Positions 10,374-49,323 are shown, counted from the stretch's first letter. The stretch is 64,000 bases of DNA from Balanoglossus misakiensis (GCA_040954595.2 CM082576.2:13209129-13273128); one strand, 5' to 3'. Made by a program: numbers and translations. The notes: a model not told the origin generated them from the letters alone.

Positions 10374-10757
10374 GACTGAATCAGCTGAGCTTCCCCGTGT
10401 GTTTTATATTCTAAAAACGCAAAAAAAATGTACTTGAAATGTGTGGGCTTGAAGCGCGAGCGTCATAAAACCCTTCGTTTCGAACACAGTGTGAATGAAT
10501 GAGAAGGATGCATTTTGATATATCAGTGGATTAAATGATTTGCAAATGCAAATAATATCACCAGCTGAGAACATCTGTTACAGTAACGGTTTGCAAACTG
10601 CCGTAACACCATACACATAGACTCATATGCAAGAAAACTCTGCTTGCGTGGCTGGTATCGGACACAAAATAATTTACACGAATTTTAATAGCAAGGATAT
10701 CTAGTTTAGATTGCGATGTGAGGATTTTGGCTGTTTCAAGTGAGCGATTCCGGAGAA

Positions 10758-13700
10758 ATGGCTACCGCTATTAATATAAAGCCGACGAGTACAACAACAG
10801 TGAGTACAGCTGATGGGTTAGAATGCGAGCTGACGTGTCCCATTTGTATGGAAATTTTCAACCAGCCGCTGAAGCTGCCCTGCGAGCACGACCTCTGTCG
10901 GAACTGTGCCGTCAATCTCCTCCAGTCGCAGACCGTCGTCCGGGGCAGGAAGCCCCGCGCCTTCCGATGCCCAGAATGCCGCGAAAAGATCGAGGTGGAC
11001 GGGAGGGGCATCGACTGTCTGAGGAGGAACGTGCGTCTGCAAAACATCATCGACCGCTTTGTTGCCTCCGACAAAGATAGTATACGTGGAAGCGCTGATG
11101 CGACGGGCGTTCCTCAGGCAGCTGCAGGTGGATGTGAGAATATTTACCGAATCATTTTGCCCGATTCGTTGCCTGTAAAGAACGGTTGCGAAAATCAAGA
11201 AGAAAGATCACCGCATCAAGAAAGGGTAGGTACGAATTAATGTTTGTCTTTTATATCAAAACCGAATTATCCGATACCGTATAGTAATTATAAAAATCAG
11301 TGCGATTCATAGTCCATCCACATTGCACAAACTGTTTATATTTTTATATAAAAATATGTGTGGAGTGACCGTGGTTGTATTAATGGGAAAAAGATGGGCG
11401 TTTGGGATTTCAAATGCATTTGCATGTACACCACATCCAGCCAAAAAGAAGACTTTAGGTCTATGTACCAATATGAAGGACGTATTCAGGATATGTACCT
11501 GTTAGGTTATAAATCCCTCTGCACAAAAATCACATTTCCCAAAGAAATCAGCGAAATTCACACAGACTTTGTTGCACACCAAGGGCATTTAATCCCTGGG
11601 CCGAGTATATGTGGAGATGACGTTTGTCAATTGCCTGTATCAGGCATGTTAAGATGATCCCGATATCCCGACTGCGTTGGTCGCAGTGAACAAATCGGCC
11701 GACCTACCAATCGTCAACATTTGGTTTGTCTGCAGGAGACCCTGATAGCTGCGGTCGACGAACTATGTATCGCTAATAATGAACTGGAAGACTTTCTGGA
11801 AGAAATGAACAACCTTCGCTCATTAATTAAAGTATGTTAAATATAATTTTTGTCCGTCTCTCTGCATGCCTGTCTAATCCCTTCTCTATCGCGGGTAACC
11901 ATGTATATACACTGCATGCCCCACTGATGAGAATTCTAAGATTCCTAACAATTTGAATCGCTGCTGTCGAAGTTTTCATTTGGATAAAATTTCAGCAACC
12001 GAAGTTAAACGAAATCTGGTCAGTCAGTGCAAGCCAACAACTTAGAAGAAACTGTCGACTGTAAAATTTTACAAAGAGGCGTGGTCGTCATTGTAAACGA
12101 GAGCTGCTGTAACTCCTGAAAAAGGTTATGCCATAATAAGTGCGAGATGATAAAAGTGACAGGTACATTACGTGACTCAGTGATTTTATAACACGAAGGT
12201 TGCTAAGTTACAGTGTCTTTCAACAAAACCAATATAACATTTGCGGTTATACAACAATCGTTTATATGATACTAGTACTTTAATAGTGCAAGTGCTTACT
12301 TATTGTCGTTCGTGTGAAAGTGTTCATTGCATCTCACTTCTAGGAAGACGCGGTCAAATGTAAACGTTTGGTGGACAGCGAAATAGAGAGCTTGATATCC
12401 ACTCTCAAACAGCGCCGCAACGCTCTCGTGGAGAAAATCGCCAGGCAGGAGCTAGAAAAGACGCGGTTGGTGGATGACCAAATGAAGACAAGGCAACACT
12501 TGTTACAGGAGGGTCTGAACACCGCTCTTGATGTCGAAGACATCGTCGAAAACTTAGACGACGACTCGATTGTGCAGGTAGGAATGATTGGTAATGGAGT
12601 GATGTTGTACCACAGCCTTTGCACTCAGCTCAATCGACCATGCAAAAAAGTCACTTAATAGTCAACGGACCATTTGTGTGATGGCGGCCATGTTCTGGAC
12701 TTGCTGCAATGCTGAAGCATGGAGTAGATTGGTCGTGGGTGAAGAATAGACAAATATCTGTTGAATGCGCTATTACATGACATATATACATAAAATAATT
12801 GAACTTTCTTCGTTTATTCTTTTTTCTTTCAATGCAGAATTCGCAAACCTTGGAAAACCGGTAAGCAAAAACAACCATATTCCAACTCGAGTTTGTTGAT
12901 ATGTCATTAGCCCTTTCAGAAAACATCGTCAGCTTCTCCAGCTATGGTTTTGGCCACCATGTTAACTTTCCAGAAGTTGCAACCAATATACTTTCAGATA
13001 ACATAGCTTGTGACCCTCCGCCTTCCACTACGACTTTGTTGACGTGGGCATTTTATAACACAATAATCAATCAATTGTCTACGCACAGAACTTTTTATTG
13101 GAGACAAAAAGGGAAACCAAGGGTCAACTGTGCATGAAATTTAAAATGATTCACTCTGCCGTTATAAAAAAAATCTGGTATGGTACTCAATAACTTGCAT
13201 GGATTCTGTGTAATATGCTAGTCTTCAAGTCCCTTTTTATGCTTTGCAGCATCGTCCAGGTGAAGCGAAGAATCTACGCGTGTCTCCAGGAGCCAATGGT
13301 CGAGCCAGAGTTGGGATTCGTGGTAGACTTCAAACTACAGAAGAACGTTTTGGAAATGTTGGACATCATCTCGAGCAAACCAAACATCAGGATTCAAATT
13401 GGCGAAGTGCTGTCCTCGGTGATCGCGCCTGCGTACATCCAGGTTCCGCAGATCCCCTACGTTCCCATGGTAACTCTCCGAAACGCATCCATTCCCATGG
13501 CAACAGCGTCGTTTCCCGCACAGGGGAGTTTAAAGATCAGGTCGTCACCGGAGCTCAGTTCACTTTTGGCAATGACGACACCAATGTCGGTCGAGAGCCC
13601 GATGACAGCTCAACAGATCAATCATGGACAACTCGTTGCTACAGAAACCATTGCAACCAGGTCATTATCACCCATCGCGTACCACAAATATCCACGTCAA

Positions 13701-14105
13701 ATGGACACCAAACCCAAAGATTACACACCGTCTCCGGTAAAATACTCGAGACCGATATTCTCGTTGGGTGAAATGGCTGTGACGAATCCCGTGCCAGCGG
13801 ACGTTACCAGGGCGACGGTTGTGGACAGAGGTTGCCGGGGCAAACCCCCACCACGTAACACCACATCGTCGACAAGAAGGACTGGTAGCGGGCCATCGAG
13901 ACGAAAGTCGGACCACAATAGACGTGGCGGAGACACAGCAAACGCTTCCGACGGTCAACTTCGTGTCTTCAACCCGCGGTTCCCCGCATCATTGCCCACT
14001 TTATACAGCCGCGATTCCGACAACTCGTCGCGCACAGACAATGCCCAGAATCGCGATAGAGCGACCGATCTTGTGGACGATAGGCGACGGGAAACTTTCA
14101 TCTAA
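10758..14105 (+). CDS. TRIM-like RING E3 ligase: RING, coiled coil, COS-like box, low-complexity tail; no B-box; ~558 aa, 5 exons
   Basis: Exons 10758-11225, 11736-11831 (96 nt), 12344-12577 (234 nt), 12838-12860 (23 nt), 13250-14105 are in frame. The RING reads ELTCPICMEIF..PLKLPCEHDLCRNC..FRCPECR..LRRNVRLQNIIDRF, which is TRIM-type. The COS-like segment reads EPELGFVVDFKLQKNVLEMLDII. Confidence 0.85.
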
Positions 14106-16110
14106 ATACAACCATTTGTATAAAACTTGCACAATATGCCAATATACCGATTTGTCGAAAATTCTGATTCATGTACTGGTGCACAGTCTGTTTGGAACGA
14201 CTATGACTATAGAGTTGAACAACTCACCTGCTCAAATCTTTATGGCATATTCATGATGCCAGTTGACTTCCACCTCACATATGCTATGTCTGCTGTGATG
14301 ACCATGCGTATAAATTTGACAAAGGAATTAACACATCACTCAGACTTTGTACAGAATAAAATACTTTTAGAGCATATGATACCCGCTCCTATAGCATGTT
14401 TACACCCCATTGCATGTGTATACATATTCATTGTGTAATAAAATTCCTATCCCATTGGAAATAGTAGGCCTACCAGCCATCAATTTATTGTTCTGTGTGC
14501 GCACAAAAAGCTATTCTCACGTATGCATTCTGTCAACCTATCTAGTTGTTATCTTATGGATTGGAAGTATTGGCTGTACCTTACCTATATGACGCATTAT
14601 TGGTTTATAAAACATGAACATGATTACATCGCCCATTCCACGGTTGTAGCGGCGCGCGTGTAAATGTTTCCTGCCGTTGGAGGCGCTCATTTGCGACGCC
14701 CTTTAAACTTTAAATCACACAAAGGCATAAATTATCATTTCGCGGGGTTCCAGATACAGAAGTTGATCAAGCGTTCGGATTGACATTCAAGCGAATCCAC
14801 ATGACAGATGCAGACTTTCGTCGTTTTGCTGGAAACGCAGTCCCTATAGTTGCTGCAGTTTTGTAGCCCCACGACTCTCCTTGACGATTGTTGTTTTGGA
14901 TGGGGATCGTCAAGGAGAGTGGTGGGGGGCTACAAAACTGCAGCCAATTATAATAATTATGCAAGCCTGCAGTGTTCCGGTTAGAATCGTAAGACACGGT
15001 TACTACTTCTTCTAGTAACCGTGCGTAAGAGAAAGGCAGAAGAAGAAAAACAAGGCTGTGAAGACAGCAAAACTTATACAGATTCTATAACATTAATGTT
15101 TATCAACTTTCTCTGAATAAATCCCCCGTGGTGAAATAAAAGAAACGTGAAAGTGAGAGCCAAATAAACTTCACGCCGTGCATCCGAATCCCATTCTTAT
15201 TCCCAATTTGAATCTGAATTCACTCGAAAGATAGCGTCGTGTATGTCCGATTTGATTGCAGCGAGGGCCGGGAGCCACAAGGTTGGTAAGTGACGTTTGC
15301 AGACCGATATTTGTGAATTATCAGTCATGTTTGATGAAAGGTTCTGTGCATGAGGTAGGACAAAGCAACACGCCGTGTGTGATTGTGCATAAAATCATGC
15401 AAGCTGTCTCGATCGGCTTGGCCGGGTACGCTGCTAACTCTTCTCGTTCGAAGCGTACGTGTGAGTAATCCCATTTCGAAGGCTGGATTGATTATTCAGC
15501 AGCGTATACACATGGATACTGTCGATGAATGGAATCGTGCCCTCAGTGTAGTCGCATTTTACCATGCATTTACCAAGCGTTTGAACGTGACCACGTGTAG
15601 ATGTGATAGCTGCCGGAATAAAACACCCGGTTACTTGTCGATTTCATGTCAAACAGTACAGCTGTGGCTGACAGTAGATTTGCATGAAATATACACACAT
15701 CGAGATGTCAGACATCTGCGTGTTGTGCTGGGAGCTGTTTTCTTGGGGGGGGGGGGGGGGACGTGCTTGTCGTTTGTAAATTTCCCGGAAATTTCCAGCC
15801 TTTCCATTTCTTGTAATTACATGTATATTGTCAGAAAGTTGGTGTAGCATGCGAGAAAATGATTAATTTTGTTTGTTTATATGAGGACAGTGGTCCAGCA
15901 CTGCACTGGTGACAGAGACCCTTCGTTCACACTGAGTCACTGTTATATACGCAGGGAAATTACGGTCTGCATTACAATGTAGAGCTACAAACGTGTAGCT
16001 GAGATCAATGTTTGCCGTAAGATGACGTCACAAAATTGTTCGGTAACTCTATAAATTGATAATTCCAAATGATCATCAATTATGCAAATTGTGCCTTGCA
16101 GAGATCAGTG

Positions 16111-19100
16111 ATGGAAGCGGTTGATGATGAAGCATATACTCCGTTTGCATTCAACAGAGCCATGAGAAGAGATGTCAGGACATGTCTGACAAGGTATTTA
16201 AAGGGACAAAGTCTCTCTCTCTCGCTGCCCATTTTCCATCGATACAAGACACTGTTTATGTTATTCTACATGTGGATACATAGTGACTCAACGTTCGACC
16301 TCGCACAACTTTCATCCCACTTGTAGACACGAGAGTGAAAAAATCGCCAAAATGAATAATCACTTCTGCTAATCCAGGAGCTAGTGGCTAAAATCAGGAA
16401 TAAAGTGCTCACATTCTTGGAATCTTTTTTTTGCAGCATTATAATAAAGTTACTCTTCGAACACAACCCAGAGGGTCTTGTCACAACCTCACATGCTTAC
16501 TCATCATTCAAGGCCACCATAGATCATGTCTTCCCGACGGTTGGAGAAATGAACCCTGCTAAATTTGGAGGCAAGCTTAAGTTCTGTTTCCCGGATGTCA
16601 GACGGTGCCGTAGAACAAGTCAGAACGTGTATCCTTTCGAAGCAGTGCAGATGTTGTTGTCGCTTCTGCACCAAAATTAAGCTTCCAGATCCTTAGGTTT
16701 AAAGGGACGAAGTCTCTGTCTTGCTGCCCTTTCCCATTAATTATGTTTGATACGAGACACTGTATTGTTTGGGGAGGGGGGGGGGGCACATTTTATATGA
16801 CAGACCAACATTTCTGAAAGCTCTCTGGGAAAACAATGAGCTTAAATGCAACAGACAACATTTGTGTAAGTGAAAATGTGTCGTTGGAATTTTTCTTGAC
16901 CAGTCTTTTGCAGATGGCACTACATAAACGTCAGCATGAAGCCAAAGGATGTACTTATGGAGGACAGTATTCCCACACTGGGCAAAATTCAACAGCTGTT
17001 TGCAGACTGTAACTGCAATGGTTCTCTGTTTATAGTCAAGCATGTGGTATTTTTGAGGGTAAGTGTGATTTATTATTCATTGGAGTATTGTTCAAAGTCT
17101 TAATTAGAAAAAGTATCAATACTGAGGCCCTGAAAAGTCACCTATGGATGGTCTAGACTGGCATGATCAATTTAGAGATAACAATTTATACAGAACTGTT
17201 TCTATACAACCGAGACTGACAAAATTTATACTGGATGTTATCAACTAAACTGATGACAAAATCAACGGTCGGTATATTCCTTCTGTGCAGCTTAATCTGT
17301 TTTCATTGTAGGAGATAATGGATGTTTTCTTTTCAATGTTTATTTTAGGATCTGTTATGCAGAATGAGGGACTCGAACACCACAGACAAGGAGTCGGCTG
17401 AGGAGTCCAAACTCAGAAGAGTGATCGACGGCCAGCGCGACTATCAAGAGGCCTTTTCATTTCCTTTCTCTGGGTCAAGCAGTGGAGCTGCAGACGTCAT
17501 CGAAATCAGCGACAGTGAGACCGATTCACAGGACGAGGTGGATGTGGAGAGTGCGGCCACGACGTGGTGTGTGGAAGACGGCGTTTTAATGCAGAAAATT
17601 GCGAAGGACACTTCTGGTGGAGCGAACGACTCATCACATCATAACTGGAATCAGGTCTCTGGTAAAGAAGCTGGTGGTGGTCCTACCGATGGACAAAGGA
17701 ATGAGGTTGCCGGGGAACGATGGAACGCCCCTCCCAGTCAGCAGTGGAATCAGATTCCGGGTGGTGAAGTCAGCACAGCTCCCGGCAAGAACGGGCATTC
17801 TATTCTGTCGACCGTAGTCGATAGTGTCATCAGTCAGAGATTGAATAGGCTTCCCAGTGGTGTTGTACCGACTGCTCTGTCCGCCGGAAACTTCAACGGT
17901 CTCAGTGCGACGCAAGCGAGTGCCCCTCCTCCTCCAGGCAGTGCCCGGCCGCAGACTCTCATCTGGAATCAAATCCCTGAGACCGGATATGTGCCTGGGT
18001 CTGCTCCAGTCAGCAGTCAATTCGACCGTGGCGCCCCAACTATCGGGGACTTGGTGTTGCCAACGCCACCACCACCACCATTTCCTCGACCTGAGCAACC
18101 CGGTGTCGTTCTTGGAACCAGCGGTAACCATCCGAGACAGAACTGGCCGTCAAATATGTCGGCTCCGGCTGCAAGCTCCGGGCAGAGCGCTGCTGGTACG
18201 CAAAGTTTTCTGCTGAGTATTTCTCCAGACCAGAGGAAGGTTTCAATGGTGAGGCTTGACCAGGCCCTGGGTATGGATGGAAACGGTCAGCTGGGGACTG
18301 TCAATCGGTCAGGGTTTCACAACAGTAGTGGCAGAGACAGTGGCGTTGGCACAGACTCTGGTAAGTCCTCATCACGTTTCATAGCTTATTGCCGAATGCA
18401 TTAGCCTTGAGCTCTGCTACAGCTGCACGAGGGCGCTTTTATTGGCATGTGTTAGTCTGCGTCATTCTTACATGTAGTCTTTACTATCAATCATGTGATC
18501 TGACCATGTGACCAACAGCGTTGTCATTTCCTGATGATGGGCAAGCAATATTAGGCATCCAGTAAAAGTTTTTTTCGAGTATGTTTTTACTTTGGAACCG
18601 CCAAACATGTAACATGTATCAGGTATGGTGCCTTATCAGCCTCATGGCGTTTCTTCTGCACTGTCTTTGTCTGCACCATGTAAGTCCACGTTGCTGAAGT
18701 TGCCCGTCATCTGGAAATTTGAATGCCAACGTAACTGCGCCTGAGCGCATCTGACGTTATCTGATATCGAAGAATTGTGATAGTATCACTTACCTTGGTG
18801 TGGTGGACACGTGCATACAAAACGTACCAAAATCCGAATCATGCATGCTTCATGAACATTTTCTCCTTTGTCTTGTCAGCATATAGCACCCCGGAGCCCA
18901 AGCGGAAGACCGAGACGAAAAGTCAATGGAAAGAGAAGAAGGCAAAGAAGCACAAAGGAAAACATCAAAGTAAAAAAGACAAGAAACAACGCAAAAGCCA
19001 GAAAAAGAAGCGTATGGAAGAGCAGCAAAATGACAATGAACACATCCCGGAGAGTGTTATTTGTTTGAACAAGGCAAAATTCAAACAAACTAAATGCAAA

Positions 19101-20162
19101 CACTGCTTTGCGAAATTCCCGTCCAAAATGACGCTGCAGATGCATATGCAAGTCGTCCACCCGAAGCACATCCTGAAACAGAGCAGGCCATTCCCGGGCT
19201 CCAGGAAGTTGTTCGTCCCCAGGATTGCAGAAAATGCACCGGTCTACGAGTGCGCTGTGTGCCAGCGGTCCTTTGGTGGCAGCTCAGGCTACAGAAGCCA
19301 CATGCGTATATCCCACGCCAAATGCCACCAATACGTTTGCCAGCAGTGCAACCGCCTGGCTTTCGTCCGGAAGTACGATTTCCTGGTGCACAGGAAACGA
19401 GTGCACGCCAGGAGGCCAATCAGGAAAGCAAAGGAGGGGACGAGAGCAGACGACGGGAGCGGCAACATCACCAGCGACGGAGAACTGTGCAGCGATGGGG
19501 ATGCGACCTCCAGCGGGGAAGATTTTGAAGGCGACCGCTCCGGGTGGAGGCCCTGTGTGAAAAGGGCAAAGGTCGTGCACCGAAGGAGAAAGATATCGCA
19601 TGGAAGTGAGACCACGACAGACACTTCAGATGAGGAGAGTTCGCGCGAGAGTCTGTTGAGGAAAGGGACTTACGCAGATGGTCTCGTGAAACCGTTCAGT
19701 CTGCCGGAGTCCTGCCTGAACTTGAGCATCGACCAACTCTACCCAGCGGTGTCCCTGACGAAAATGCCACTCATTGCAAAAAAGGTGGTCAGGGCTCAAG
19801 ATGGAGGCAACACCAAGCAGGGCGTGGGCAGCTGTCAGGCTGCTGGTGTTCCTAGCAACGCCCCAGCTGTACCGGCAGGTGACCATCAAGAAGGAGACAC
19901 CGGCAGCTGCACCTCGGATGACGACGAGGCTCCCTGCTCGTTTCAACCCCGAATCAAGCGTGAGGCAGGGGTGGACGCATATCAGGGCTTGTACCAGTGT
20001 CCCTATTGCGACATCATTTTCCCCGATACGACCATGTATCTGACCCACCGCAACTTCCATAGCTACGATAATCCCTTCAAATGCCGCATCTGTCAGGTCA
20101 TGTGTGCGGACAGATACAGCTTCCAGAAGCATAGGTGTGAAATTCCTGAGTACAATGTTTAA
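16111..20162 (+). CDS. Putative transcription factor: RFX-like winged helix, 3 C2H2 fingers and an Ikaros/Hunchback-type C-terminal finger pair; ~904 aa, 5 coding exons
   Basis: Exons 16111-16193, 16437-16628, 16914-17058, 17349-18360, 18880-20162 splice in frame. The start codon is tentative because an upstream exon may end near 15285. Motifs: MNPAKFGGKLKFCFPDVRRCRRTSQNVWHYINVSMKP; CKHC..H..H, CAVC..H..H, CQQC..H..H; YQCPYCDIIFPDTTMYLTHRNFHSYDNPFKCRICQVMCADRYSFQKH. Confidence 0.8.
16629..16913 (+). other. U12-type (minor spliceosome) GT-AG intron
   Basis: 5' site GTATCCTTT; branch-site-like TTTTCTTGAC (16891-16900) 13 nt before the 3' end; the splice restores the reading frame (V-WHY). Confidence 0.8.
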
Positions 20163-23100
20163 AAGCGTAGCAAACTCTAGCAAACATTATGGTCAGGTAA
20201 AATTGTATCTGTTTTATGGGTTATACTAATTTTCCTTCTACCTATTTTTTTCTCTCTCAGTCTCAGACTTGAATCATAAGGAAATGTAAGTTTGTGCGCG
20301 TCGCCCGTCTGTATTGGATCAGTTGTAGTATATACATCAAGTGGTGACGTGTGATTGTCAACTGTTGACTGTTTGTGGGTTGACTCACTGCTTTTAAACA
20401 TAAATTCTTAATCTTGAATAACATGTTCCATACCTGTGCCCCTTTAGGCGGAATCCTCCTTTCATTAAACCATTTATACTCTAATATTCTATTCACACAA
20501 GCTATACATCTGAAATATTGAATTCTTCTCATCTACTGAAATAAATACATCAGTACTGGTATTTCACACATAAATATTTAACTTATTTCCTGATACAATG
20601 ATAATACTATTTTATATGCTATATTGCTTGTAGACACAGAAAAGCTTAACAGTTCTTTGGAGGTTTATGAATTTTGTCCTCCATTTCCTGAAAATTCCAT
20701 AGGAAAACGATCACCTACAGAACTGTAGAGAACATATTTTGGAACAGTATTATTGATATTTGCTGTGTTATTGAGCTGAACCAATCTGTTGTTATAGCAA
20801 CAGTCATTTTTGTGGTAATGTCTTGTAAATATGGGCAAAACTTGGTCAGTTCCGAACCGCAAAGACTTAGAAAAAAATTTGGGTTTTCAAATCTCTATTA
20901 TTTTTGCCAGGTTGGGTAACTTTTTTTGTTTGTTACAACTAACTCAGGGCTTGTCTGAGGCTATCAGGTGTATGATCAGAATATTTCAAAAAACTCAAAA
21001 TTATTGTACCTTTATCCCAATACTAAAATGAGCACTTTTTTCTTCAAATCCTATTCATAATATCCAAACAAAAGTACTTTTGTGTATAATATCTCTGCAC
21101 AAACTCAGGACTTGTGTGAAACTATGGGCTTCAATAATAATAATAATAATAATATTGATAATATTTATTTCTTATACTCACATTACATTTTAAAAAGATC
21201 TAACCGTGCTTAACACAACATTAAAAATAAATGAATAAAATAGTTGGATAAATGCTTGAAATGGCAGGATGTAAATTGAGACTGTTGGTCGATCCAGGGA
21301 TAAAACAACCTAAAATGGTATGTTTCCATAAGTGTGTGTGCGCCAGAAATTTTTCATGCAAACCTGATCAAACTGTTGCGGTCACAGAATTAGCAATTAC
21401 TGAATGCAATAATTGCTGTAATTTTTTAAGTTATTCTATGGCAGGTTAATTTATTTGTCTCTGTGTGTGCAAACTCAGGACTTGTTTTCACATTGAGTGT
21501 ACATGTACATCCATTTTATTTCAAGCATCTTTACTTAACGCAGTTTAATTCATTGTTTGTGTTGAGTTTACAATGTAGTCTTAGAAACAGTTTGAAATAA
21601 TGGATAGTTTTCCTATTTTGTTTCTCGGAATTGTGACGTTCTGTATGTATATTGGTGGTTTTCAGGAAGTTCGAACCACACTTACAGAAAGTTTTAACCA
21701 TACAGAAATTTTAATCGTGCATTTTGTGTTTTGTGAAGTTACCCACAAATGAATACCAATGCAGCATTTGGACGGCAGAGTTGATACCATTATGAAAGTT
21801 TCTCATACACAGTTTTGAAGCAGTTTAATTAGACAGACATGCAAACGTAAACACCACTCAGGATTGCACATCATGTTCTATCAGCAAGAAACAAAACAGG
21901 ATGGTAGCAATTACTGTAGTAATTAGTTTTAAGAAATCTTGCTTATGAATTTTATTATTCAGAGAAACCATTTTTCACAAACACTTAACAATGGCCATGG
22001 AGGCCATTTAACTACTTAAATAGTCTACGCTGGATCAAAATTTAACCAATATGTTCCGTCTACAGTATTGTATCAGCTCTTTGTAATTATTACAATATTC
22101 CTGTTATTGAAATAGTATGTTTTATGAGTGAAGACTGAATAGGGAAACTAACCACTGAATTGTGTGCTTTCAGATTGAGTTCTGAATGAAGTTTTTAAAG
22201 ACACGTAGTTTTACGCAAGAGAACTTGACATGTGAAGGTACATTCTAACATTTAGAGTTTGATTTTGTGCCATCAATGCAAAGTTAAAAACGGAAAACTA
22301 AACATTCACCTTAACATTAAAGAGACAAGCACCGGTGTATATTTTGAGGGTGCAATGTGGTTGCAAGATTACCCAGTAGTATTGTTTTCCTAATTCATTC
22401 TTGCCCAAACTTTAAATGTATTTTTTTGCACAAAGTGGGTGGGGTATTTACATTTTACATTGATGAATTTTATATCACTTTAATATACATGTCTGTCTTT
22501 GGTATATTTATATGACAGAATATTTTATAGTAGAAAAGATGATTATTTAATAATTTTTATACATTTTAATACTTAGTACTCAGCAAAGTAGTGATTGACA
22601 GAATTTGAAGTATGGCTTGTGTGCTAAAGTGTGCAGCGGCAAAGTTTAGTCTCCTTTTATGGGACTGTGCATCATGCGTGTAGGCTTTTAACGTTCACAC
22701 AACTTCATGTACTTATCTTATCCTGAGGTACTGGAGGGACCAGACTAGTGGATTTCTACTGTGATTTTTATGTACTGCACAGTGTGCTTGTAGGATCAAT
22801 GTTTTAACTCAGATGTAAACTTGCCGTGATGGCATCATTTCTTGTGAACTTAAATAGTCAGCCAGTCATTTTTAATGAAAAAGGTAATTTCAACTTTGTA
22901 GTGAGGAAAATGGGGGGGGGGGGGGAATCCTTGTTATCAGATACATGTACTATTACGATGGTGTAGAAGAACAGTAATTTATGTAGTCTTGTCATTTTGA
23001 AGATTTTCCTGTATGTAATGTTTATGTCAAATTGTAGATTGGTTGTGCAACATGTCATTTTCAGTGGATTGCTTGAACAAAAGACAAAACACGAGAGCTG

Positions 23101-23771
23101 AATTTATTTCCCTTTTTGAAAATTATAAATACTGCCTTCTGTTCCGGGTTCAGACTGGGATATACAATATATATATATTTTGCAACTTGTGGATAAGTCA
23201 CTGTTCCCATCAGGTGTTTACAAAGAGACACATTGGTCTAATAGAGACAAATGAAATGTATTGATATTTCAATCTCTGTAGAAATTATTTTCCATGCCTG
23301 AGTCGAGAGCAAGACATATTGGTGCTAGTAGAAAGATGTTCCTTTGCAATTAGTCGACAAATTACTTTGCAAAAAAAAAATATTTTTTTTTTAGTTTTGA
23401 CTAGCAAATGACCAGTACATATATGTGCATTTATGTAGATTATGCTTAGACTGTTGCTGTAATAAAAGTGTCATGTTTCACGACTGAATTTACTGTATGT
23501 AAATACTCTGTGCATTGACAGCATTTTGGCAAATGTTCTGAACCCCCCCCCCCCCCTGCTATTTATGAATGCAGCCTCAGCCCTGCCATACAGCATCCAT
23601 ATCTCAGTGAGAAAGGTGGTGGACCATACAAGGAAGATAGAAGAATCTGACTTGGTCACTTTCATGACCCCTTTGTGACCTTTTCATTATGGCATTTCGT
23701 TGGTATGGGTTTACCATTTTGAGTTTGAACTCTGAATAGTCTACCTCATCCCAGAACATCTCCAGTCTCCC

Positions 23772-32100: not shown

Positions 32101-33680
32101 GATTCAGATATGCAGTGCACCCCTTTGTGGAATTATAAAATGGTTCAACCCAATTCTAGTTTTATATTCTGATTGGCTGATTGTCTACTTCGCGCTCTTT
32201 TTACAGATCTTCGGCCACCGCATACAAAAGAGTCGTCTGTGTTGCGTCAGGGCGTGTAGTCTCACAAGAACTGGGTACAGGGGGTTTGTCTTCCGCGAAT
32301 TTGAGGTTAGTCCTGCGTCAAACCACGGTTGTGATATCTGGGGAGTTATGGTCGGCCGGCCGGCCTGCTGTGTTACAGAAAATTTTAATGTATGGCCTGG
32401 TGTGAGTGCTCTGCAGGACAAAAAGCGATTTTGTATCAGACGATGTGCTTGTGTGTCGCGTGGCTGAATGCAGCAGTTTGGTCGCGACGCATATTTACAC
32501 CAGGAGTCAAACTCTGCACGGAGCACAGGAAAAAATTCAGGGACTTCATAGAAAAAGTTGTCGGTCAGCCTTTTTTTCTTCTGCCTTTCTCATACCCTTA
32601 CAATTTTAACCTCTTTTGGTGAACTCTTCCTACCGCCTCCGACTGACCTCCTACCTGGCCTTACTAGTAAAGTAAGGTAGGTCAGGCAGAAGGAAGGGTT
32701 CACCAAAAGAGTGCGCATTTTATCATGCATATAATTACTGTGCCATTGTTTACAAGGAAGGGTTCACTAAAAAAGGACGCATTTTATCATGCATATAATT
32801 ACTGTGCCATTGTTTATACTGTGCACGAGCAGAGAAGCCTTGGTGTTCTGGTTATCGTATTGGTAAGAGAAAGACAAGAGTTGACAGACAACAAACTTGT
32901 CAGTTTCTATCATTTAATTATAACTAAACTTCCCTGAATTTCTCCCTGTGCACAGAGGGCGTATGAGACGGGTTGCTAGTCGTTTGACAGTAACCTTTTC
33001 AGCCAAGGTAATTTTGGCCCCCAGCTGTTTGGTCTGTAACACTTAAGAGTATTTAATTAATGCATCTATCAAGGTTCCCTAGGGGGAGTGCAAGCCTAAC
33101 AAAGGAATGTGACATTTTTGTTTTTAGTCCTCTCAAATTCCCCACCCTAAGATTAGAAGGGAGGTTTGGCATGAAAACAACATTTATGTGTTCTTCAGAC
33201 ATTTTATATTAATTAAAGGTATATTGTGTAGTGTGGAAGGATTAAATGTACAAATTCTACAGTAAAATGATGATGTGGTAAGCAAAATTGAATAAAAGGT
33301 AAATCTGCAAATGTTTTGTTTTGCAACATTGTCAAATTCTCCAGTGTCGGGCGGAGTGGCGATCAAATTTCCGAGTGTGGGGACACTACGTGTATAGTGT
33401 TTGGTATAAAATTCGACCCATGTTGCCCCGCACTCTACCAGGGGAAATCATTGATACGTGTATAGACTTATGGCATAAACCCTCGCTTGAGGTTCTATGA
33501 TAATGGTAATGGATGAGGAGGCTCACTGTATCTGTATGTCATCACGACTTTAATAATACATTTACTCCCTTTGCAGTAGTCGAAGAATAACATCTTGCGA
33601 TTTGCCAAGGATCAAAGACAACGGCACGACGTACCAAAAGAAAGTTTTCAAGATATCTACTTCATAGACACTTACTACAA

Positions 33681-35174
33681 ATGACTAGACGGCGAAGATT
33701 AATGAGGGTGGAAAGTAAAAGTCGTACTGATAAACAGCCACACGAATGCAGAATATGTGGAAAATGTTTCTCTCTGGGTTCAAGTTTAAAAGAGCATCTA
33801 CGAATCCATACCAAGGAAAAGCCATATGAATGCAAAACGTGTGGGAGATGTTTCTCCCGGAGTTCAAGTTTAAAAAACCACCAACGGCTCCATACCAATG
33901 AAAGACCATATAAATGCGAGACGTGTGGGAGATGTTTCTCCCAGAGTTCAAGTTTAAGTGTCCATCAACGGATCCATACCAAGGAAAAGCCATATGAATG
34001 CGAGACGTGTGGTAAATGTTTCGCCAGGAAAGGCTCCCTAACGGAACACTCGAGGGTTCATACAAAGGAAAAGCCATATGAATGCAAATCATGTGGGAGA
34101 TGTTTCTCCTATGGTTCAAGTTTAAGAGCTCATCAACGGCTCCATACCGGCGAACAGCCATACGAATGCAGATTTTGTGGTAAATGTTTCCCCCGGAACG
34201 ACTCCTTAACACTGCACTTGATACATCATACCCATGAAAAACCATATGAATGCGAAACATGTGGTAAACGTTTCTCCCATGGATCAAGTTTTAAAGTTCA
34301 TCAACGAATCCATACCAAGGAAAAGCCATACGAATGCAGAGTTTGTGGTAAACGTTTCCCCCGAAAATACTCCTTAACACTACACATGAGGCTTCATACC
34401 AATGAAAAACCACATGAATGCAAAACATGTGGTAAATGTTTCCCCCGGAAAGACTACTTAGCACGACACATGAGACTTCATACCAATGAAAAACCATATG
34501 AATGCATAACATGTGGAAAATGTTTCACTCTGAGTGGGATTTTAAAAGCCCACCAAAAAATCCATACCAATGAAAAGCCACATGAAAAACCATATGAATG
34601 CAAAGTATGTGGAAAGTGTTTCTACCAGAGTTCAAGTGTAAAACGCCATCAACGGATCCATACCAAGGAAAAGCCACATGAATGCAATACGTGTGGTAAA
34701 TGTTTCTCCCAGGGTTCACATTTAAAAGTCCATGAACAGCTCCATACCAATGAAAAACCATATGAATGCAAAATATGTGGAAAATGTTTCTCCCATGGTT
34801 CAAGTTTAAAAGTCCATCAACGAATGCATACCAATGAAAAACTGCATGAATGTGAGACGTGTGGTAAATGCTTCCCCCAGGGTTCACATTTAAAAGTCCA
34901 TCAACGAATCCATACCAAGGAAAGGCCATATGAATGCAAAACGTGTGGTAAATGTTTCTCCCAGGGTTCAAGTTTAAAACGCCATCAACGGCTCCATACC
35001 AATGAAAGGCCACATGAATGCGAGACGTGTGGGAAATGTTTTTCCCAAAAGGAAAACTTAAAAGTCCATCAACGCATCCACCTGAAAGAGAAGCCATATG
35101 AATGCGAGATGTGTGGTAAAGGTTTCTGCCAGAAGTCGCTATTAAAAAACCATCAACGAATCTATGCCAAATGA
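33681..35174 (+). CDS. C2H2 zinc-finger array protein, copy 1 (16 intact fingers plus 1 degenerate)
   Basis: 497-aa ORF of 28-aa CxxC-x12-HxxxH repeats with HT(K/N)EKPYEC linkers. A splice acceptor ttactccctttgcag lies at ~33576. Confidence 0.9.
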   Translation: MTRRRRLMRVESKSRTDKQPHECRICGKCFSLGSSLKEHLRIHTKEKPYECKTCGRCFSRSSSLKNHQRLHTNERPYKCETCGRCFSQSSSLSVHQRIHTKEKPYECETCGKCFARKGSLTEHSRVHTKEKPYECKSCGRCFSYGSSLRAHQRLHTGEQPYECRFCGKCFPRNDSLTLHLIHHTHEKPYECETCGKRFSHGSSFKVHQRIHTKEKPYECRVCGKRFPRKYSLTLHMRLHTNEKPHECKTCGKCFPRKDYLARHMRLHTNEKPYECITCGKCFTLSGILKAHQKIHTNEKPHEKPYECKVCGKCFYQSSSVKRHQRIHTKEKPHECNTCGKCFSQGSHLKVHEQLHTNEKPYECKICGKCFSHGSSLKVHQRMHTNEKLHECETCGKCFPQGSHLKVHQRIHTKERPYECKTCGKCFSQGSSLKRHQRLHTNERPHECETCGKCFSQKENLKVHQRIHLKEKPYECEMCGKGFCQKSLLKNHQRIYAK

Positions 35175-39153: not shown

Positions 39154-39705
39154 GGTCTGTACACTCTGAGTATTTTATTAATGCATCCATCAATTTTCCC
39201 TCGGGGGAGTGCAAGCCTAAGAAAGGAATGTGACATTTTTGTTTTTAGTCATCTCAAATTCCCCACCCTGAGATTAGAGAAAATGGAGCTTGGTTTTTTT
39301 CCAGACTTCACCATAATGCAGAGTCCATGCTCGTACATGTAGACATGATGAATCTGTAACCGTTTTGTTTTACAACATTGTCAAATTTTCCTGTGTCGGG
39401 TAGATTGGCGATCAAATTTCCGAGTGTCAGGACACTACATGTATAGTGTTTGATATAAAATTCGACCCATGTTGCCCCGCACTCCACCAGGGGAAATCAT
39501 TGATACGTGTATAGTTATGAGGGTCTATGATAATGGTAATGGATGAGGAGGCTCACTGTATATCTGTATGTCATCACGACTTTAATGATACATTTACTCC
39601 CTTTGCAGTAGTCGAAGAATAACAGCTTGCGATTTGCCAACAAGGATCAAAGACAATATCAAAAGAAAGTTTTCAAGATATCTAGTTCATAGACACTTGC
39701 TACAA

Positions 39706-41619
39706 ATGATTAGACGGCGAATATTAATGAGGGTGGAAAGTAAAAGTCATACGGATAAACAGCCGTACGAATGCAGAGTTTGTGGAAAATGTTTCCCCTG
39801 GAAATACTCCTTAACACTACACATCAGACTTCATACCCATGAAAAACCATATGAATGCAAAACATGTGGTAAATGTTTCTCCCTGAATGGCAACTTAAAA
39901 GTCCATCAACGAATCCATACCAACGAAAAGTCTTATGAATGCAAAGTATGCGGAAAATGTTTCTCCCAGAAAGGCAACTTAAAAGTCCATCAACGAATCC
40001 ATACCAATGAAAGACCATATGAATGCAAAGTATGTGGAAAGTGTTTCAACCAGAGTTCACATTTCAAACACCATCAGCAGATCCATACCAAGGAAAAACC
40101 ATACGAATGCGAAACGTGTGGTAAATGTTTCTCCCAGGGTTCAAGTTTAAAACGCCATCAACGGCTCCATACGAATGAAAAGCCACATGAATGCGAAACG
40201 TGTGGTAAACGTTTCTCCCACGGATCAAGTTTGAAAGTTCATCAACGAATCCATACCAAGGAAAAGCCGTACGAATGCAGAATTTGTGGTAAATGTGTCT
40301 CCCGGAAAGACTCCTTAACACTACACATGAGACTTCATACCCATGAAAAACCATATGAATGCAAAACGTGTGGTAAATGTTTCTCCCTGAATGGCAACTT
40401 TAAAGTCCATCAACGAATCCATACCAAGGAAAGGCCATTTGAATGCGAGACGTGTGGGAGATGTTTCTCTCAAGGTTCAAGTTTAAGAGTCCATCAAAGA
40501 ATCCATACCAAGGAAGAGCCATATGAATGCGAGACGTGTGGGAGACGTTTCTCCCGGAAAGACTCCTTAACACTACACATGAGGATTCATACCCATGAAA
40601 AACCATATGAATGCAAAACGTGTGGTAAATGTTTCTCCCTGAATGGTAACTTAAAAGTCCATCAACGAATCCATACCAAGGAAAAGCCATTTGAATGCGA
40701 GACGTGTGGAAAATGTTGCTCTGTGGGTTCAAGTTTGAAAGTTCATCAACGAATCCATACCAAGGAAAGGCCATATGAATGCCAAACGTGTGGTAAATGT
40801 TTCTCCCAGGGTTCAAGTTTAAAACGTCATCAACGGCTCCATACGAATGAAAAGCCACATGAATGCGAGACGTGTGGTAAACGTTTCTCCCACGGATCAA
40901 GTTTTAAAGTTCATCAACGAATCCATACCAAGGAAAAGCCATACGAATGCAGAGTTTGTGGAAAATGTTTCCCCTGGAAATATTCCTTAACACTACACAT
41001 GAGACTTCATACCCATGAAAAACCATATGAATGCAAAATGTGTGGTAAATGTTTCTCCCTGAATGGCAACTTAAAAGTCCATCAACTAATCCATACCAAG
41101 GAAAGGCCTTTTAAATGCAAAACGTGTGGTAAACGTTTCTCCCACGGATCAAGTTTGAAAGTTCATCAACGAATCCATACCAAGGAAAGGCCATATGAAT
41201 GCAAAACGTGTGGTAAATGTTTCTCCCTGAATGGCAGCTTAAAAGTCCATCAACGAATTCATACCAAGGAAAGGCCATATGAATGCAAAACGTGTGGTAA
41301 ATGTTTCTCCCTGAATGGCAACTTAAAAGTCCATCAACGAATCCATACCAAGGAAAGGTCATATGAATGCGAAACGTGTGGTAAACGTTTCTCCCACGGA
41401 TCAAGTTTGAAAGTTCATCAACGAATCCATACCAAGGAAAGGCCATATGAATGCAAAACGTGTGGTAAATGTTTCTCCCTGAATGGCAGCTTAAAAGTCC
41501 ATCAACGAATTCATACCAAGGAAAGGCCATATGAATGCAAAACGTGTGGTAAATGTTTCTCCCAGGGTTCAAGTTTAAAACGCCATCAACGGCTCCATAC
41601 GAATGAAAAGCCCACATGA
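39706..41619 (+). CDS. C2H2 zinc-finger array protein, copy 2 (22 fingers, then a frameshift)
   Basis: The ATG equivalent to copy 1 is at 39706, inside ORF 39634-41619. After 22 tandem fingers, out-of-frame finger remnants continue to ~41816. Confidence 0.88.
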   Translation: MIRRRILMRVESKSHTDKQPYECRVCGKCFPWKYSLTLHIRLHTHEKPYECKTCGKCFSLNGNLKVHQRIHTNEKSYECKVCGKCFSQKGNLKVHQRIHTNERPYECKVCGKCFNQSSHFKHHQQIHTKEKPYECETCGKCFSQGSSLKRHQRLHTNEKPHECETCGKRFSHGSSLKVHQRIHTKEKPYECRICGKCVSRKDSLTLHMRLHTHEKPYECKTCGKCFSLNGNFKVHQRIHTKERPFECETCGRCFSQGSSLRVHQRIHTKEEPYECETCGRRFSRKDSLTLHMRIHTHEKPYECKTCGKCFSLNGNLKVHQRIHTKEKPFECETCGKCCSVGSSLKVHQRIHTKERPYECQTCGKCFSQGSSLKRHQRLHTNEKPHECETCGKRFSHGSSFKVHQRIHTKEKPYECRVCGKCFPWKYSLTLHMRLHTHEKPYECKMCGKCFSLNGNLKVHQLIHTKERPFKCKTCGKRFSHGSSLKVHQRIHTKERPYECKTCGKCFSLNGSLKVHQRIHTKERPYECKTCGKCFSLNGNLKVHQRIHTKERSYECETCGKRFSHGSSLKVHQRIHTKERPYECKTCGKCFSLNGSLKVHQRIHTKERPYECKTCGKCFSQGSSLKRHQRLHTNEKPT

Positions 41620-47629: not shown

Positions 47630-47925
47630 CGTGTATAGTGTTTGGTGTAAAATTCGACCCATGTTGCCCCGCACTCTACCAGGGGAAATCATTGATACGT
47701 GTATAGGACTTATGGCATAAACCCTTGCTTGAGGGTCTATGATAATGGTAATGGATGAGGAGGCTCACTGTATCTGTATGTCATCACTACTTTAATGATA
47801 CATTTACTCCCTTTGCAGTAGTCGAAGAATAACAGTTTGCGATTTGCCAACAAGGATCAAAGACGACGGCACGACGTACCAAAAGAAAGTTTTCAAGATA
47901 TCTAGTTCATAGACACTTACTACAA

Positions 47926-49323
47926 ATGACTAGACGGCGAAGATTAATGAGGGTGGAAAGTAAAAGTCATACGGATGAACAGTCATATGAATGCAGAATA
48001 TGTGGTAAATGTGTCTCCCAGAAAGACTCCTTAACACTACACATGAGGATTCATACCCATGAAAAACCATATGAATGCAAAACGTGTGGTAAATGTTTCT
48101 CCCTGAATGGCAACTTAAAAGTCCATCAACGAATCCATACCAAGGAAAAGCCATTTGAATGTGAGACGTGTGGAAAATGTTGCTCTGTGGGTTCAAGTTT
48201 GAAAGTTCATCAACGAATCCATACCAAGGAAAGGCCATATGAATGCAAAACGTGTGGTAAACATTTCTCCCACGGATCAAGTTTGAAAGTTCATCAACGA
48301 ATCCATACCAAGGAAAAGCCGTACGAATGCAGAGTTTGTGGAAAATGTTTCCCCTGGAAATACTCCTTAACACTACACATGAGACTTCATACCCTTGAAA
48401 AACCATATGAATGCAAAACGTGTGGTAAATGTTTCTCCGTGAATTGCAACTTAAAAGTCCATCAACGAATCCATACCAATGAAAAGCCATATGAATGCAA
48501 AGTATGTGGAAAGTGTTTCCACCTGAGTTCACATTTAAAACGCCATCAGCGGATCCATACCAAGGAAAAACCATATGAATGCGAGACGTGTGGTAAATGT
48601 TTCACCAGGAAAGGCTCCCTAACGGAACACTCGAGAGTTCATACAAAGGAAAAGCCACATGAATGCAAAACGTGTGGGAGATGTTTCTCCCTTGGTTCAA
48701 GCTTAAGAGTTCATCAACGAATCCATACCAAGGAAAAGCCATACGAATGCAGAGTTTGTGGAAAATGTGTCTCCCGGAAAGACTCCTTAACACTACACAT
48801 GAGGATTCATACCCATGAAAAACCATATGAATGCAAAACGTGTGGTAAAAGTTTCTCCCTGAATGGCAACTTAAAAGTCCATCAACGAATCCATACCAAG
48901 GAAAGGCCATTTGAATGCGAGACGTGTGGTAAATGTTTCCCCAAGAGTTCACATTTAAAACGCCATCAGCGGATCCATACCAAGGAAAAGCCATATGAAT
49001 GCGAGACGTGTGGGAGATGTTTCTCTCATGGTTCAAGTTTAAAACGCCATCAACAGCTCCATACCAATGAAAGGCCACATGAATGCGAGACGTGTGGTAA
49101 ATGTTTCCCCAAGAGTTCAAGTTTAAAAGTCCATCAACGAATGCATACCAATGAAAAACTGCATGAATGCGAGACGTGTGGTAAATGTTTCCCCCAGAGT
49201 TCAAATTTAAAAGTCCATCAACGAATCCATACCAATGAAAGGCCACATGACGTGTGGGAAATGTTTTTCCCAAAAGATAAACTTAAAAATCCAACGCATC
49301 CACCTGAAAGTAAAACCATATGA
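47926..49323 (+). CDS. C2H2 zinc-finger array protein, copy 3 (15 fingers, then a frameshifted tail)
   Basis: 465-aa ORF; a small deletion at ~49250 shifts the frame within finger 16. Confidence 0.88.

Follow-up and report, generated by a model that had tools for sequence, protein, structure and literature searches.

Gene structure and genomic setting

How did an RFX-type winged helix come to stand at the head of a zinc finger protein with an Ikaros/Hunchback-type terminal finger pair, and what could such a protein do? The question is raised by a predicted gene in a 64,000-nucleotide window of Balanoglossus misakiensis DNA (G000:C1:13209129-13273128), which was analyzed together with searches of the genome (319.5 Mb in 72 contigs). 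The initial annotation had joined five exons into one frame of about 904 aa, and this model holds. Splicing via four GT-AG introns (243, 285, 290, and 519 nt; phases 2, 2, 0, and 1) gives 2715 nt in one frame, encoding 904 aa plus a stop codon, and both the N- and C-terminal peptides quoted earlier are present in it. Retention of any single intron terminates the protein 14–44 aa downstream. The five-exon chimeric gene is confirmed at the DNA level, with splicing predicted; the joins of exons 3 to 4 and 4 to 5 are predicted from splice signals and frame. The features are as follows.

16111..16193, + strand, exon 1 (aa 1-28), starting at the first ATG of the model
16194..16436, + strand, intron 1, phase 2, GT-AG
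16437..16628, + strand, exon 2 (aa 28-92), the part of the RFX-type domain with three predicted helices and the wing's first half
16441..16941, + strand, RFX-type winged-helix domain (about aa 30-101), exons 2-3
16629..16913, + strand, intron 2, phase 2, GT-AG, predicted U12-type
16914..17058, + strand, exon 3 (aa 92-140), last strand of the wing followed by 40 aa whose origin is unclear
17349..18360, + strand, exon 4 (aa 141-478), acidic, then Pro/Ser/Gly-rich low complexity
18880..20162, + strand, exon 5 (aa 478-904), stop codon included
18897..19016, + strand, lysine-rich stretch (aa 484-523), from sequence
19089..19406, + strand, three C2H2 fingers (aa 548-571, 600-623, 629-653)
19992..20141, + strand, Ikaros/Hunchback-type terminal finger pair (aa 849-898)
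20464..20545, + strand, candidate polyadenylation signals (ATTAAA at 20464, AATAAA at 20540)

A splice acceptor lies in frame 9 nt before the ATG (16101/16102), so that an earlier exon or a longer N-terminus is possible. Exon 2 is single-copy in the genome. A Pfam scan of exon 4 gave zero matches. The lysine-rich stretch at aa 484-523 is likely a nuclear localisation signal, judged from its sequence. The three internal fingers lack canonical TGEKP-type linkers, with the first two about 28 aa apart, and an acidic linker joins them (aa 548-653) to the terminal pair. Neither AATAAA nor ATTAAA is found between 16449 and 20463.

A dispersed repeat (16198-16361, about 165 bp) makes up most of intron 1. 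Also in the window, as neighbours of the gene, are three long C2H2 arrays, genes of the TPR, P450, and GNAT types, and a RING gene whose end is at 14105. An upstream 303-aa frame (13194-14105) was rejected as part of the gene; it has its own stop and resembles the last exon of the RING gene. Orthologues were searched for with exon 2 (one candidate, none scored; zero matches in 1.84 billion representatives) and with the terminal finger pair (none found), both searches being weak for short divergent domains.

The RFX-type N-terminal domain

The Pfam scan of exon 2 covered the domain up to its last strand, which sits in exon 3. The sole match was RFX_DNA_binding (E 0.011), at 16.8 bits against a cut-off of 27. 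The domain joined across exons 2 and 3 scored above 1998 of 2000 shuffles with a profile of five host RFX domains, and above all 2000 with a profile of the six transposase domains described below. [quoted passage not shown] The gene keeps 8 of the 25 columns that are invariant in host RFX domains. Changes affect most of the wing motif and the lysine that follows the helix-3 Phe-Gly, and the wing is still arginine-rich. Only 6–10 of the same 25 columns are kept in the transposase domains, indicating that low identity is normal for this group. Since contact residues are largely invariant among RFX proteins and only a minority of invariant columns is kept here, X-box binding by this domain appears unlikely, and the earlier description of an "RFX-like DNA reader" was overstated.

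An alignment-based fold of exon 2 (12-row alignment) reached a pLDDT of 69.7, with helices at 2-9, 17-31, and 40-50, the RFX positions. In a structure search with this model, the RFX1 domain 1dp7 ranked fifth of 48,161 chains, among other winged helices (Z 5.2, rmsd 2.9, 61 residues aligned; tied with the top Z of 5.8). Six of the 12 alignment rows were host RFX or ARID2 sequences, so the fold match is partly circular, and we regard the predicted resemblance as modest, weak support. Foldseek with the alignment-based model returned nothing at E 0.001. The single-sequence fold (pLDDT 46) was uninformative, and the one match of exon 2 to PDB sequences was judged to be chance. In an ESM Atlas feature search, which covers large clusters only and provides leads only, the top matches (score 0.94) were to small clusters in which Pox_D5 members make up 18% and 43%. 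All matches in further Atlas searches were below 0.9.

A predicted U12-type intron within the wing

Intron 2 has the donor GTATCCTTT and a branch-like motif, TTTCTTGAC, that stops 13 nt short of the intron's end, which together we take to fit the U12 consensus. Of the 7783 GT sites in the window, 3 have the donor sequence GTATCCTT, and 18 of 3258 YAG sites are preceded by a branch-like motif of this kind. In the RFX5/7 gene of this genome (C24:5586849), an AT-AC intron interrupts the identical codon in the identical phase, immediately ahead of the closing strand's aromatic-x-Tyr. At the intron 2 codon, three RFX4/6-like genes carry an ordinary donor, and RFX1-3 have one four codons earlier. 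Position alone is unspecific, given the ordinary introns at this codon in the RFX4/6-like genes. The U12 donor is absent at this site from the genome's copy of ARID2. The position of intron 2 is broadly RFX, and the predicted U12 type is common to the gene and RFX5/7. Gene labels were given by sequence resemblance; that of RFX5/7 is backed by an RFX5 alignment, and the RFX4/6-like, Ikaros-like (L008), and ARID2 genes are presumably what we call them.

The exon 2-3 junction had originally been taken from a peptide in the initial annotation. The U12 signals at the RFX5/7 codon and phase support this junction as well as RFX ancestry. By its signals, the predicted U12-type intron in the wing agrees with descent from the RFX5/7 class. 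In vertebrates, RFX5 and RFX7 are minor-intron genes without the RFX dimerization domain, according to the accessible part of a preprint (bioRxiv 10.64898/2026.08.20.745718).

RFX-headed P-element-like transposases and the nearest relative

Genome searches with the RFX family and with alignments retrieved six divergent loci (C6, C9, C17, C15, C29, and C2), each with an RFX-like domain ahead of P-element-like transposase-type sequence. A transposase core was identified over the cut-off in C9 (PF21787, 34.6–37.1 bits), and weakly in C6 (PF21787, E 7.7e-4; PF21789, E 8.3e-5) and C2 (E 3.9e-4). C17, C15, and C29 are truncated and were assigned to transposases by shared motifs. Three of the six loci (C6, C29, and C15) contain the U12 intron, which is lacking in C9, C17, and C2. 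In C6 (C6:2914096) it is an AT-AC intron at the codon and phase of intron 2, in C29 a GT-AG intron at the same codon, and in C15 it lies one codon off. C6 carries another intron, of phase 2, close to where the domain begins, at a distance of two codons from the gene's own. Degenerate RFX-headed transposase fragments are dispersed through the genome. None of 17 stretches covering further P-like transposase matches (25 matches, near-identical copies partly sampled) carries an RFX-like head. A search with the transposase N-terminal alignment scored 7996 candidates, none at E 0.001, and is weak for short divergent domains.

Among the 12 domains compared, that of C6 is nearest to the gene (24% identity). 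The gene's domain scores 17.0 bits with C6 and 10.4 bits with RFX5/7, and the corresponding z values are 11.2 and 5.1, with all others besides C6 at 5.2 or below. In the phylogenetic tree, the gene is sister to C6 with 91/89 support; the C6 branch carries no star, and the gene itself sits on a long branch. RFX5/7 has a further mid-domain intron that is missing from the gene, C6, C15, and C29. C6 is thus the nearest relative of those compared, yet a host origin was not rejected in AU tests (p about 0.1; grouping with host RFX genes 0.097, with RFX5/7 0.095).

The window contains no transposase remnant besides the domain, including any match to a catalytic core, and no long inverted repeat brackets the gene within 14100-23500. 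Exon 3 was considered as a remnant of the second domain of the transposases and rejected, because the resemblance failed its control, in which equal or higher scores came from 150 of 2000 shuffles and 56 of 1037 background fragments. Its one other genomic match (C19, E 1.3) looks like chance. The initial interpretation is supported in its architecture; it missed the U12-type intron as a mark of the domain's ancestry, and also that a P-element-like transposase head, as opposed to a host RFX factor, is the nearest relative.

The terminal finger pair and dimerization

A genome search with the finger pair gave 61 matches, of which 15 were fetched. A pattern scan found 20 pairs. The gene's own and 13 others were kept as dimerization-type, and six were dropped (five ordinary pairs and a second pair in L014). 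With a profile built from the 13 other pairs, the terminal pair reaches 65.6 bits, compared with at most 42.9 bits for 50 ordinary pairs of the window; the 13 score 51–92 bits when each is left out. The proposal that the C-terminus follows the dimerization fingers is borne out by this separation. The pair keeps all nine columns invariant among the 14 sequences, as well as a near-invariant Phe. Its nearest paralogue is L003 (41–49% identity, no tree support), and it shares 32% identity with the pair of the Ikaros-like gene L008. Both this pair and the RFX-type domain are on long branches.

The first finger is an intact C2H2 finger. The second ends in His-Arg-Cys, with Cys one residue after His replacing the second His. 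In 12 of the 13 other pairs the second His lies 3–8 residues on, and L003 ends in His-Ser-His-Ser-Cys. Zinc-ligand spacing in the second finger departs from the normal Ikaros/Hunchback-type arrangement. Ikaros and Hunchback dimerize through such terminal fingers, as described in the accessible text of PMC5393059. The HBL-1 protein of C. elegans has such fingers and showed no pairing with itself or five relatives in the portion available of a preprint (bioRxiv 10.1101/2024.11.11.623063). Given these opposite precedents, pairing through the gene's terminal pair is plausible by analogy, perhaps at even odds, and a partner would not necessarily be an Ikaros orthologue; the suggested heterodimerization with Ikaros factors went too far on account of the Cys and of HBL-1.

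An RFX match near finger-pair genes on C29, considered as a second RFX-plus-pair gene, proved to be ARID2. No RFX-like frame was found at most of the other pair genes (about 10 kb each, 3 kb at L008), the best of 7751 frames having E 0.062.

Origin of the chimeric gene

On balance, we lean slightly towards the reading that an Ikaros/Hunchback-type zinc finger gene took over its RFX-like N-terminal exons from a P-element-like transposase, giving a single-copy gene for a predicted 904-aa nuclear DNA-binding regulator. A doubtful but credible alternative is that a duplicated host RFX5/7 gene directly donated the domain through exon shuffling and that the domain then evolved rapidly, its resemblance to C6 being shared drift. 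The U12 intron common to the gene and RFX5/7, the rank of RFX5/7 as second-best match, the unrejected host grouping (p about 0.1), and the absence of transposon ends or core nearby are all consistent with such a direct origin. C6 is nevertheless clearly ahead in three measures, and the mid-domain intron of RFX5/7 is missing from the gene as it is from C6, C15, and C29. We put capture via a transposase against direct shuffling from RFX5/7 at about two to one. Descent from the C-terminal winged helix of a D5-type primase-helicase (of a virus or Polinton-like element) rather than from RFX is extremely improbable. The Pox_D5 members of the top ESM Atlas clusters (18% and 43%, score 0.94) point that way as a lead only from a search of large clusters; the U12 intron at the RFX5/7 codon largely refutes it, and the sole Pfam match is RFX.

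The locus could also comprise two units, a fragment of an RFX-headed transposon in decay (exons 1-3) and, just downstream, an ordinary finger gene (exons 4-5, with its own Met), their in-frame join being accidental or rare. Degenerate fragments of this kind are scattered in the genome, exon 4 has a Met six codons in, and GC content is 42–45% in exons 1-3 vs. 53–55% in exons 4-5. We consider this arrangement rather improbable, because the strong donor at the end of exon 3 (AGG|GTAAGT) has a strong in-frame acceptor 290 nt on, 140 codons run without a stop, the U12 signals are intact, and no AATAAA or ATTAAA intervenes from 16449 to 20463. In a further reading, which we judge very unlikely, the gene is real but its winged helix and terminal pair are partly decayed, so that it works via the three fingers in its interior or acts without dimerizing. 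The 8 of 25 invariant RFX columns kept, the abnormal last ligand, the long branches, and HBL-1, which in the available part of that study did not dimerize through such fingers (bioRxiv 10.1101/2024.11.11.623063), would fit partial decay. Against it, transposase domains with only 6–10 of those columns make low identity normal, the wing remains arginine-rich, and the pair keeps nine of nine invariant columns and the near-invariant Phe.

Comparison with known systems

In TRPS1, a GATA finger occurs together with C2H2 fingers and a terminal pair of the Ikaros type. Like the gene, it combines a non-C2H2 DNA-binding domain with C2H2 fingers and such a pair; the gene differs in having, instead of GATA, an N-terminal winged helix that is likely transposon-derived, and an abnormal last finger. 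ARID2/BAF200 has C-terminal C2H2 fingers. It (PDB 7vdv, 7y8r; genome's copy at C29:576-584 kb) shares the combination of RFX-type domain and C2H2 fingers with the gene, which in contrast lacks the ARID and armadillo region, has a predicted U12 donor at a site where ARID2 lacks one, and has an Ikaros-type pair. The P element and THAP9 transposases carry THAP at the N-terminus. The six genome loci resemble them but start with an RFX-like domain in place of THAP, and the gene, unlike these transposases, has no catalytic core. RFX5/RFX7 (PDB 8zjr; RFX1 1dp7) share with the gene, for which both are predicted, a winged helix and a U12 intron at identical codon and phase, and like the gene RFX5/7 have no RFX dimerization domain, whereas the gene has about 20% identity to them, has lost most invariant positions, and has added zinc fingers.

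As in Ikaros, Hunchback, and Pegasus, a low-complexity region sets the dimerization-type terminal pair off from the internal fingers (PMC5393059, accessible text). Unlike them, the gene has three fingers without canonical linkers instead of a linked four-finger DNA-binding array, and an added RFX-type domain. KRABINER-type host-transposase fusions have the DNA-binding part of a transposase spliced to host regulatory domains, as is likely for the gene; the gene differs in being invertebrate, in its RFX-like N-terminal donor domain, and in the Ikaros-type pair as host part. In the main text of the preprint on such fusions, P/Kolobok types are common donors (21.3%), and neither "RFX" nor "Ikaros" is mentioned; similar fusions could be in its supplements (bioRxiv 10.1101/2020.05.07.082677).

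The initial annotation had proposed an unfamiliar chimera of RFX-type winged helix, C2H2 fingers, and Ikaros/Hunchback-type pair. This architecture is supported, and a literature search (most subscription journals, Repbase, and supplements outside its scope) found no paper that describes RFX-headed P transposases or an Ikaros-type pair combined with an RFX-type domain. Each ingredient has precedent in TRPS1, ARID2, and host-transposase fusions. The apparently new elements are the predicted U12-type intron 2 matching the RFX5/7 intron and the putative RFX-headed P-like transposases in the same genome.

Proposed history and significance

Under the transposase-capture reading, an RFX5/7-class DNA-binding domain, U12 intron included, would have entered a P-like transposon. 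A copy of this transposon would then have been spliced onto a host finger gene, with its catalytic part and element ends lost. The winged helix is predicted to read a non-X-box sequence that is most likely related to the donor transposon's ends, and the three internal fingers may contribute DNA or protein contacts. The terminal pair is predicted to tie the protein to itself or to some of at least 13 other pair-bearing proteins of the genome. The transposase-derived winged helix would thereby supply a new DNA specificity, and the Ikaros-type tail would supply pairing. KRABINER, a host-transposase fusion that regulates transcription and binds to its donor transposon's ends according to the main text cited above (bioRxiv 10.1101/2020.05.07.082677), is a precedent both for transposase capture and for a DNA target at donor ends.

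A fuller round trip is conceivable and, taken as a whole, unlikely: an RFX5/7 domain moved into P-like transposons, replacing THAP, was re-specified for transposon ends, and was recaptured onto an Ikaros-type dimerization module. Such a protein would steer an expanded network of at least 13 Ikaros-like partners to transposon-derived sites under minor-spliceosome control.

The reach of the finding is that of a single gene in a single genome. If the capture is true, it would represent a traceable move of a transcription factor domain from host to transposon and back to host, with a rare intron as marker. The protein would be the second case of a non-C2H2 reader on an Ikaros-type dimerization module, after the GATA finger of TRPS1. 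It would also mean that RFX-like matches in invertebrates can be transposon-derived and are not necessarily ciliary regulators.

RFX-headed transposases and RFX4/6-like genes

Six loci of a P-element-like transposase lineage with an RFX-like N-terminal domain were identified in the B. misakiensis assembly:
C6:2913900-2918200, RFX-headed P-element-like transposase locus
C9:3502000-3505300, same type
C17:7973700-7975000, same type
C15:8316500-8318200, same type
C29:7818500-7824000, same type
C2:16629300-16634400, same type

A U12-type intron, as judged by its signals, is retained in three of the six, one of them AT-AC. By their sequences, all the copies examined seem to be damaged (broken, cut short or interrupted), with the possible exception of that on C6, for which no element ends were found. 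Upstream of the C6 transposase, in divergent orientation, lies a frame with a RAG1 N-terminal-like domain (PF12560, E 5.9e-8) and a RING (L042:2469-3515 in the fetched stretch, C6:2910469-2911515, minus strand); a PIF1 helicase frame and a second transposase-like frame lie downstream. Three RFX4/6-like genes share one contig (C8:10.8-13.2 Mb) and carry an ordinary intron at the codon of the RFX5/7 U12-type intron, possibly through U12-to-U2 conversion.

Genes and repeats in the window

A dispersed repeat of ~165-180 bp, also present on C17, C15 and C24 (70-92% identity), has copies within the gene studied:
16198-16361, intron 1
16699-16763, intron 2

A long hairpin (14852-14944; arms 22-28 nt), probably a small mobile element, separates this gene from a RING gene (10722-14105). 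The RING gene has exons that resemble coiled coils and ends in an exon of low complexity; it is TRIM-like, but no B-box was seen. A recent local expansion is seen in three C2H2 arrays that lie in tandem, each encoded by a single exon, and whose leaders are nearly identical:
33591-35174, C2H2 array
39589-41619, C2H2 array
47833-49323, C2H2 array

Finger-pair genes

Genes with the Ikaros/Hunchback-type terminal finger pair were L003-L012, L014, L015 and L077 (fetched stretches), plus C29:603519 and C27:2678348. In some (C29:600873-603689 and the C22 pair), the exon examined appears to encode few further fingers, or none. A tandem array of ~555-bp units (L081/L082, C26:4059300-4066200) precedes the finger gene of L003 and adjoins an endonuclease-like frame. 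In all, at least 13 genes of the assembly besides the gene studied end in such a pair, a large expansion.
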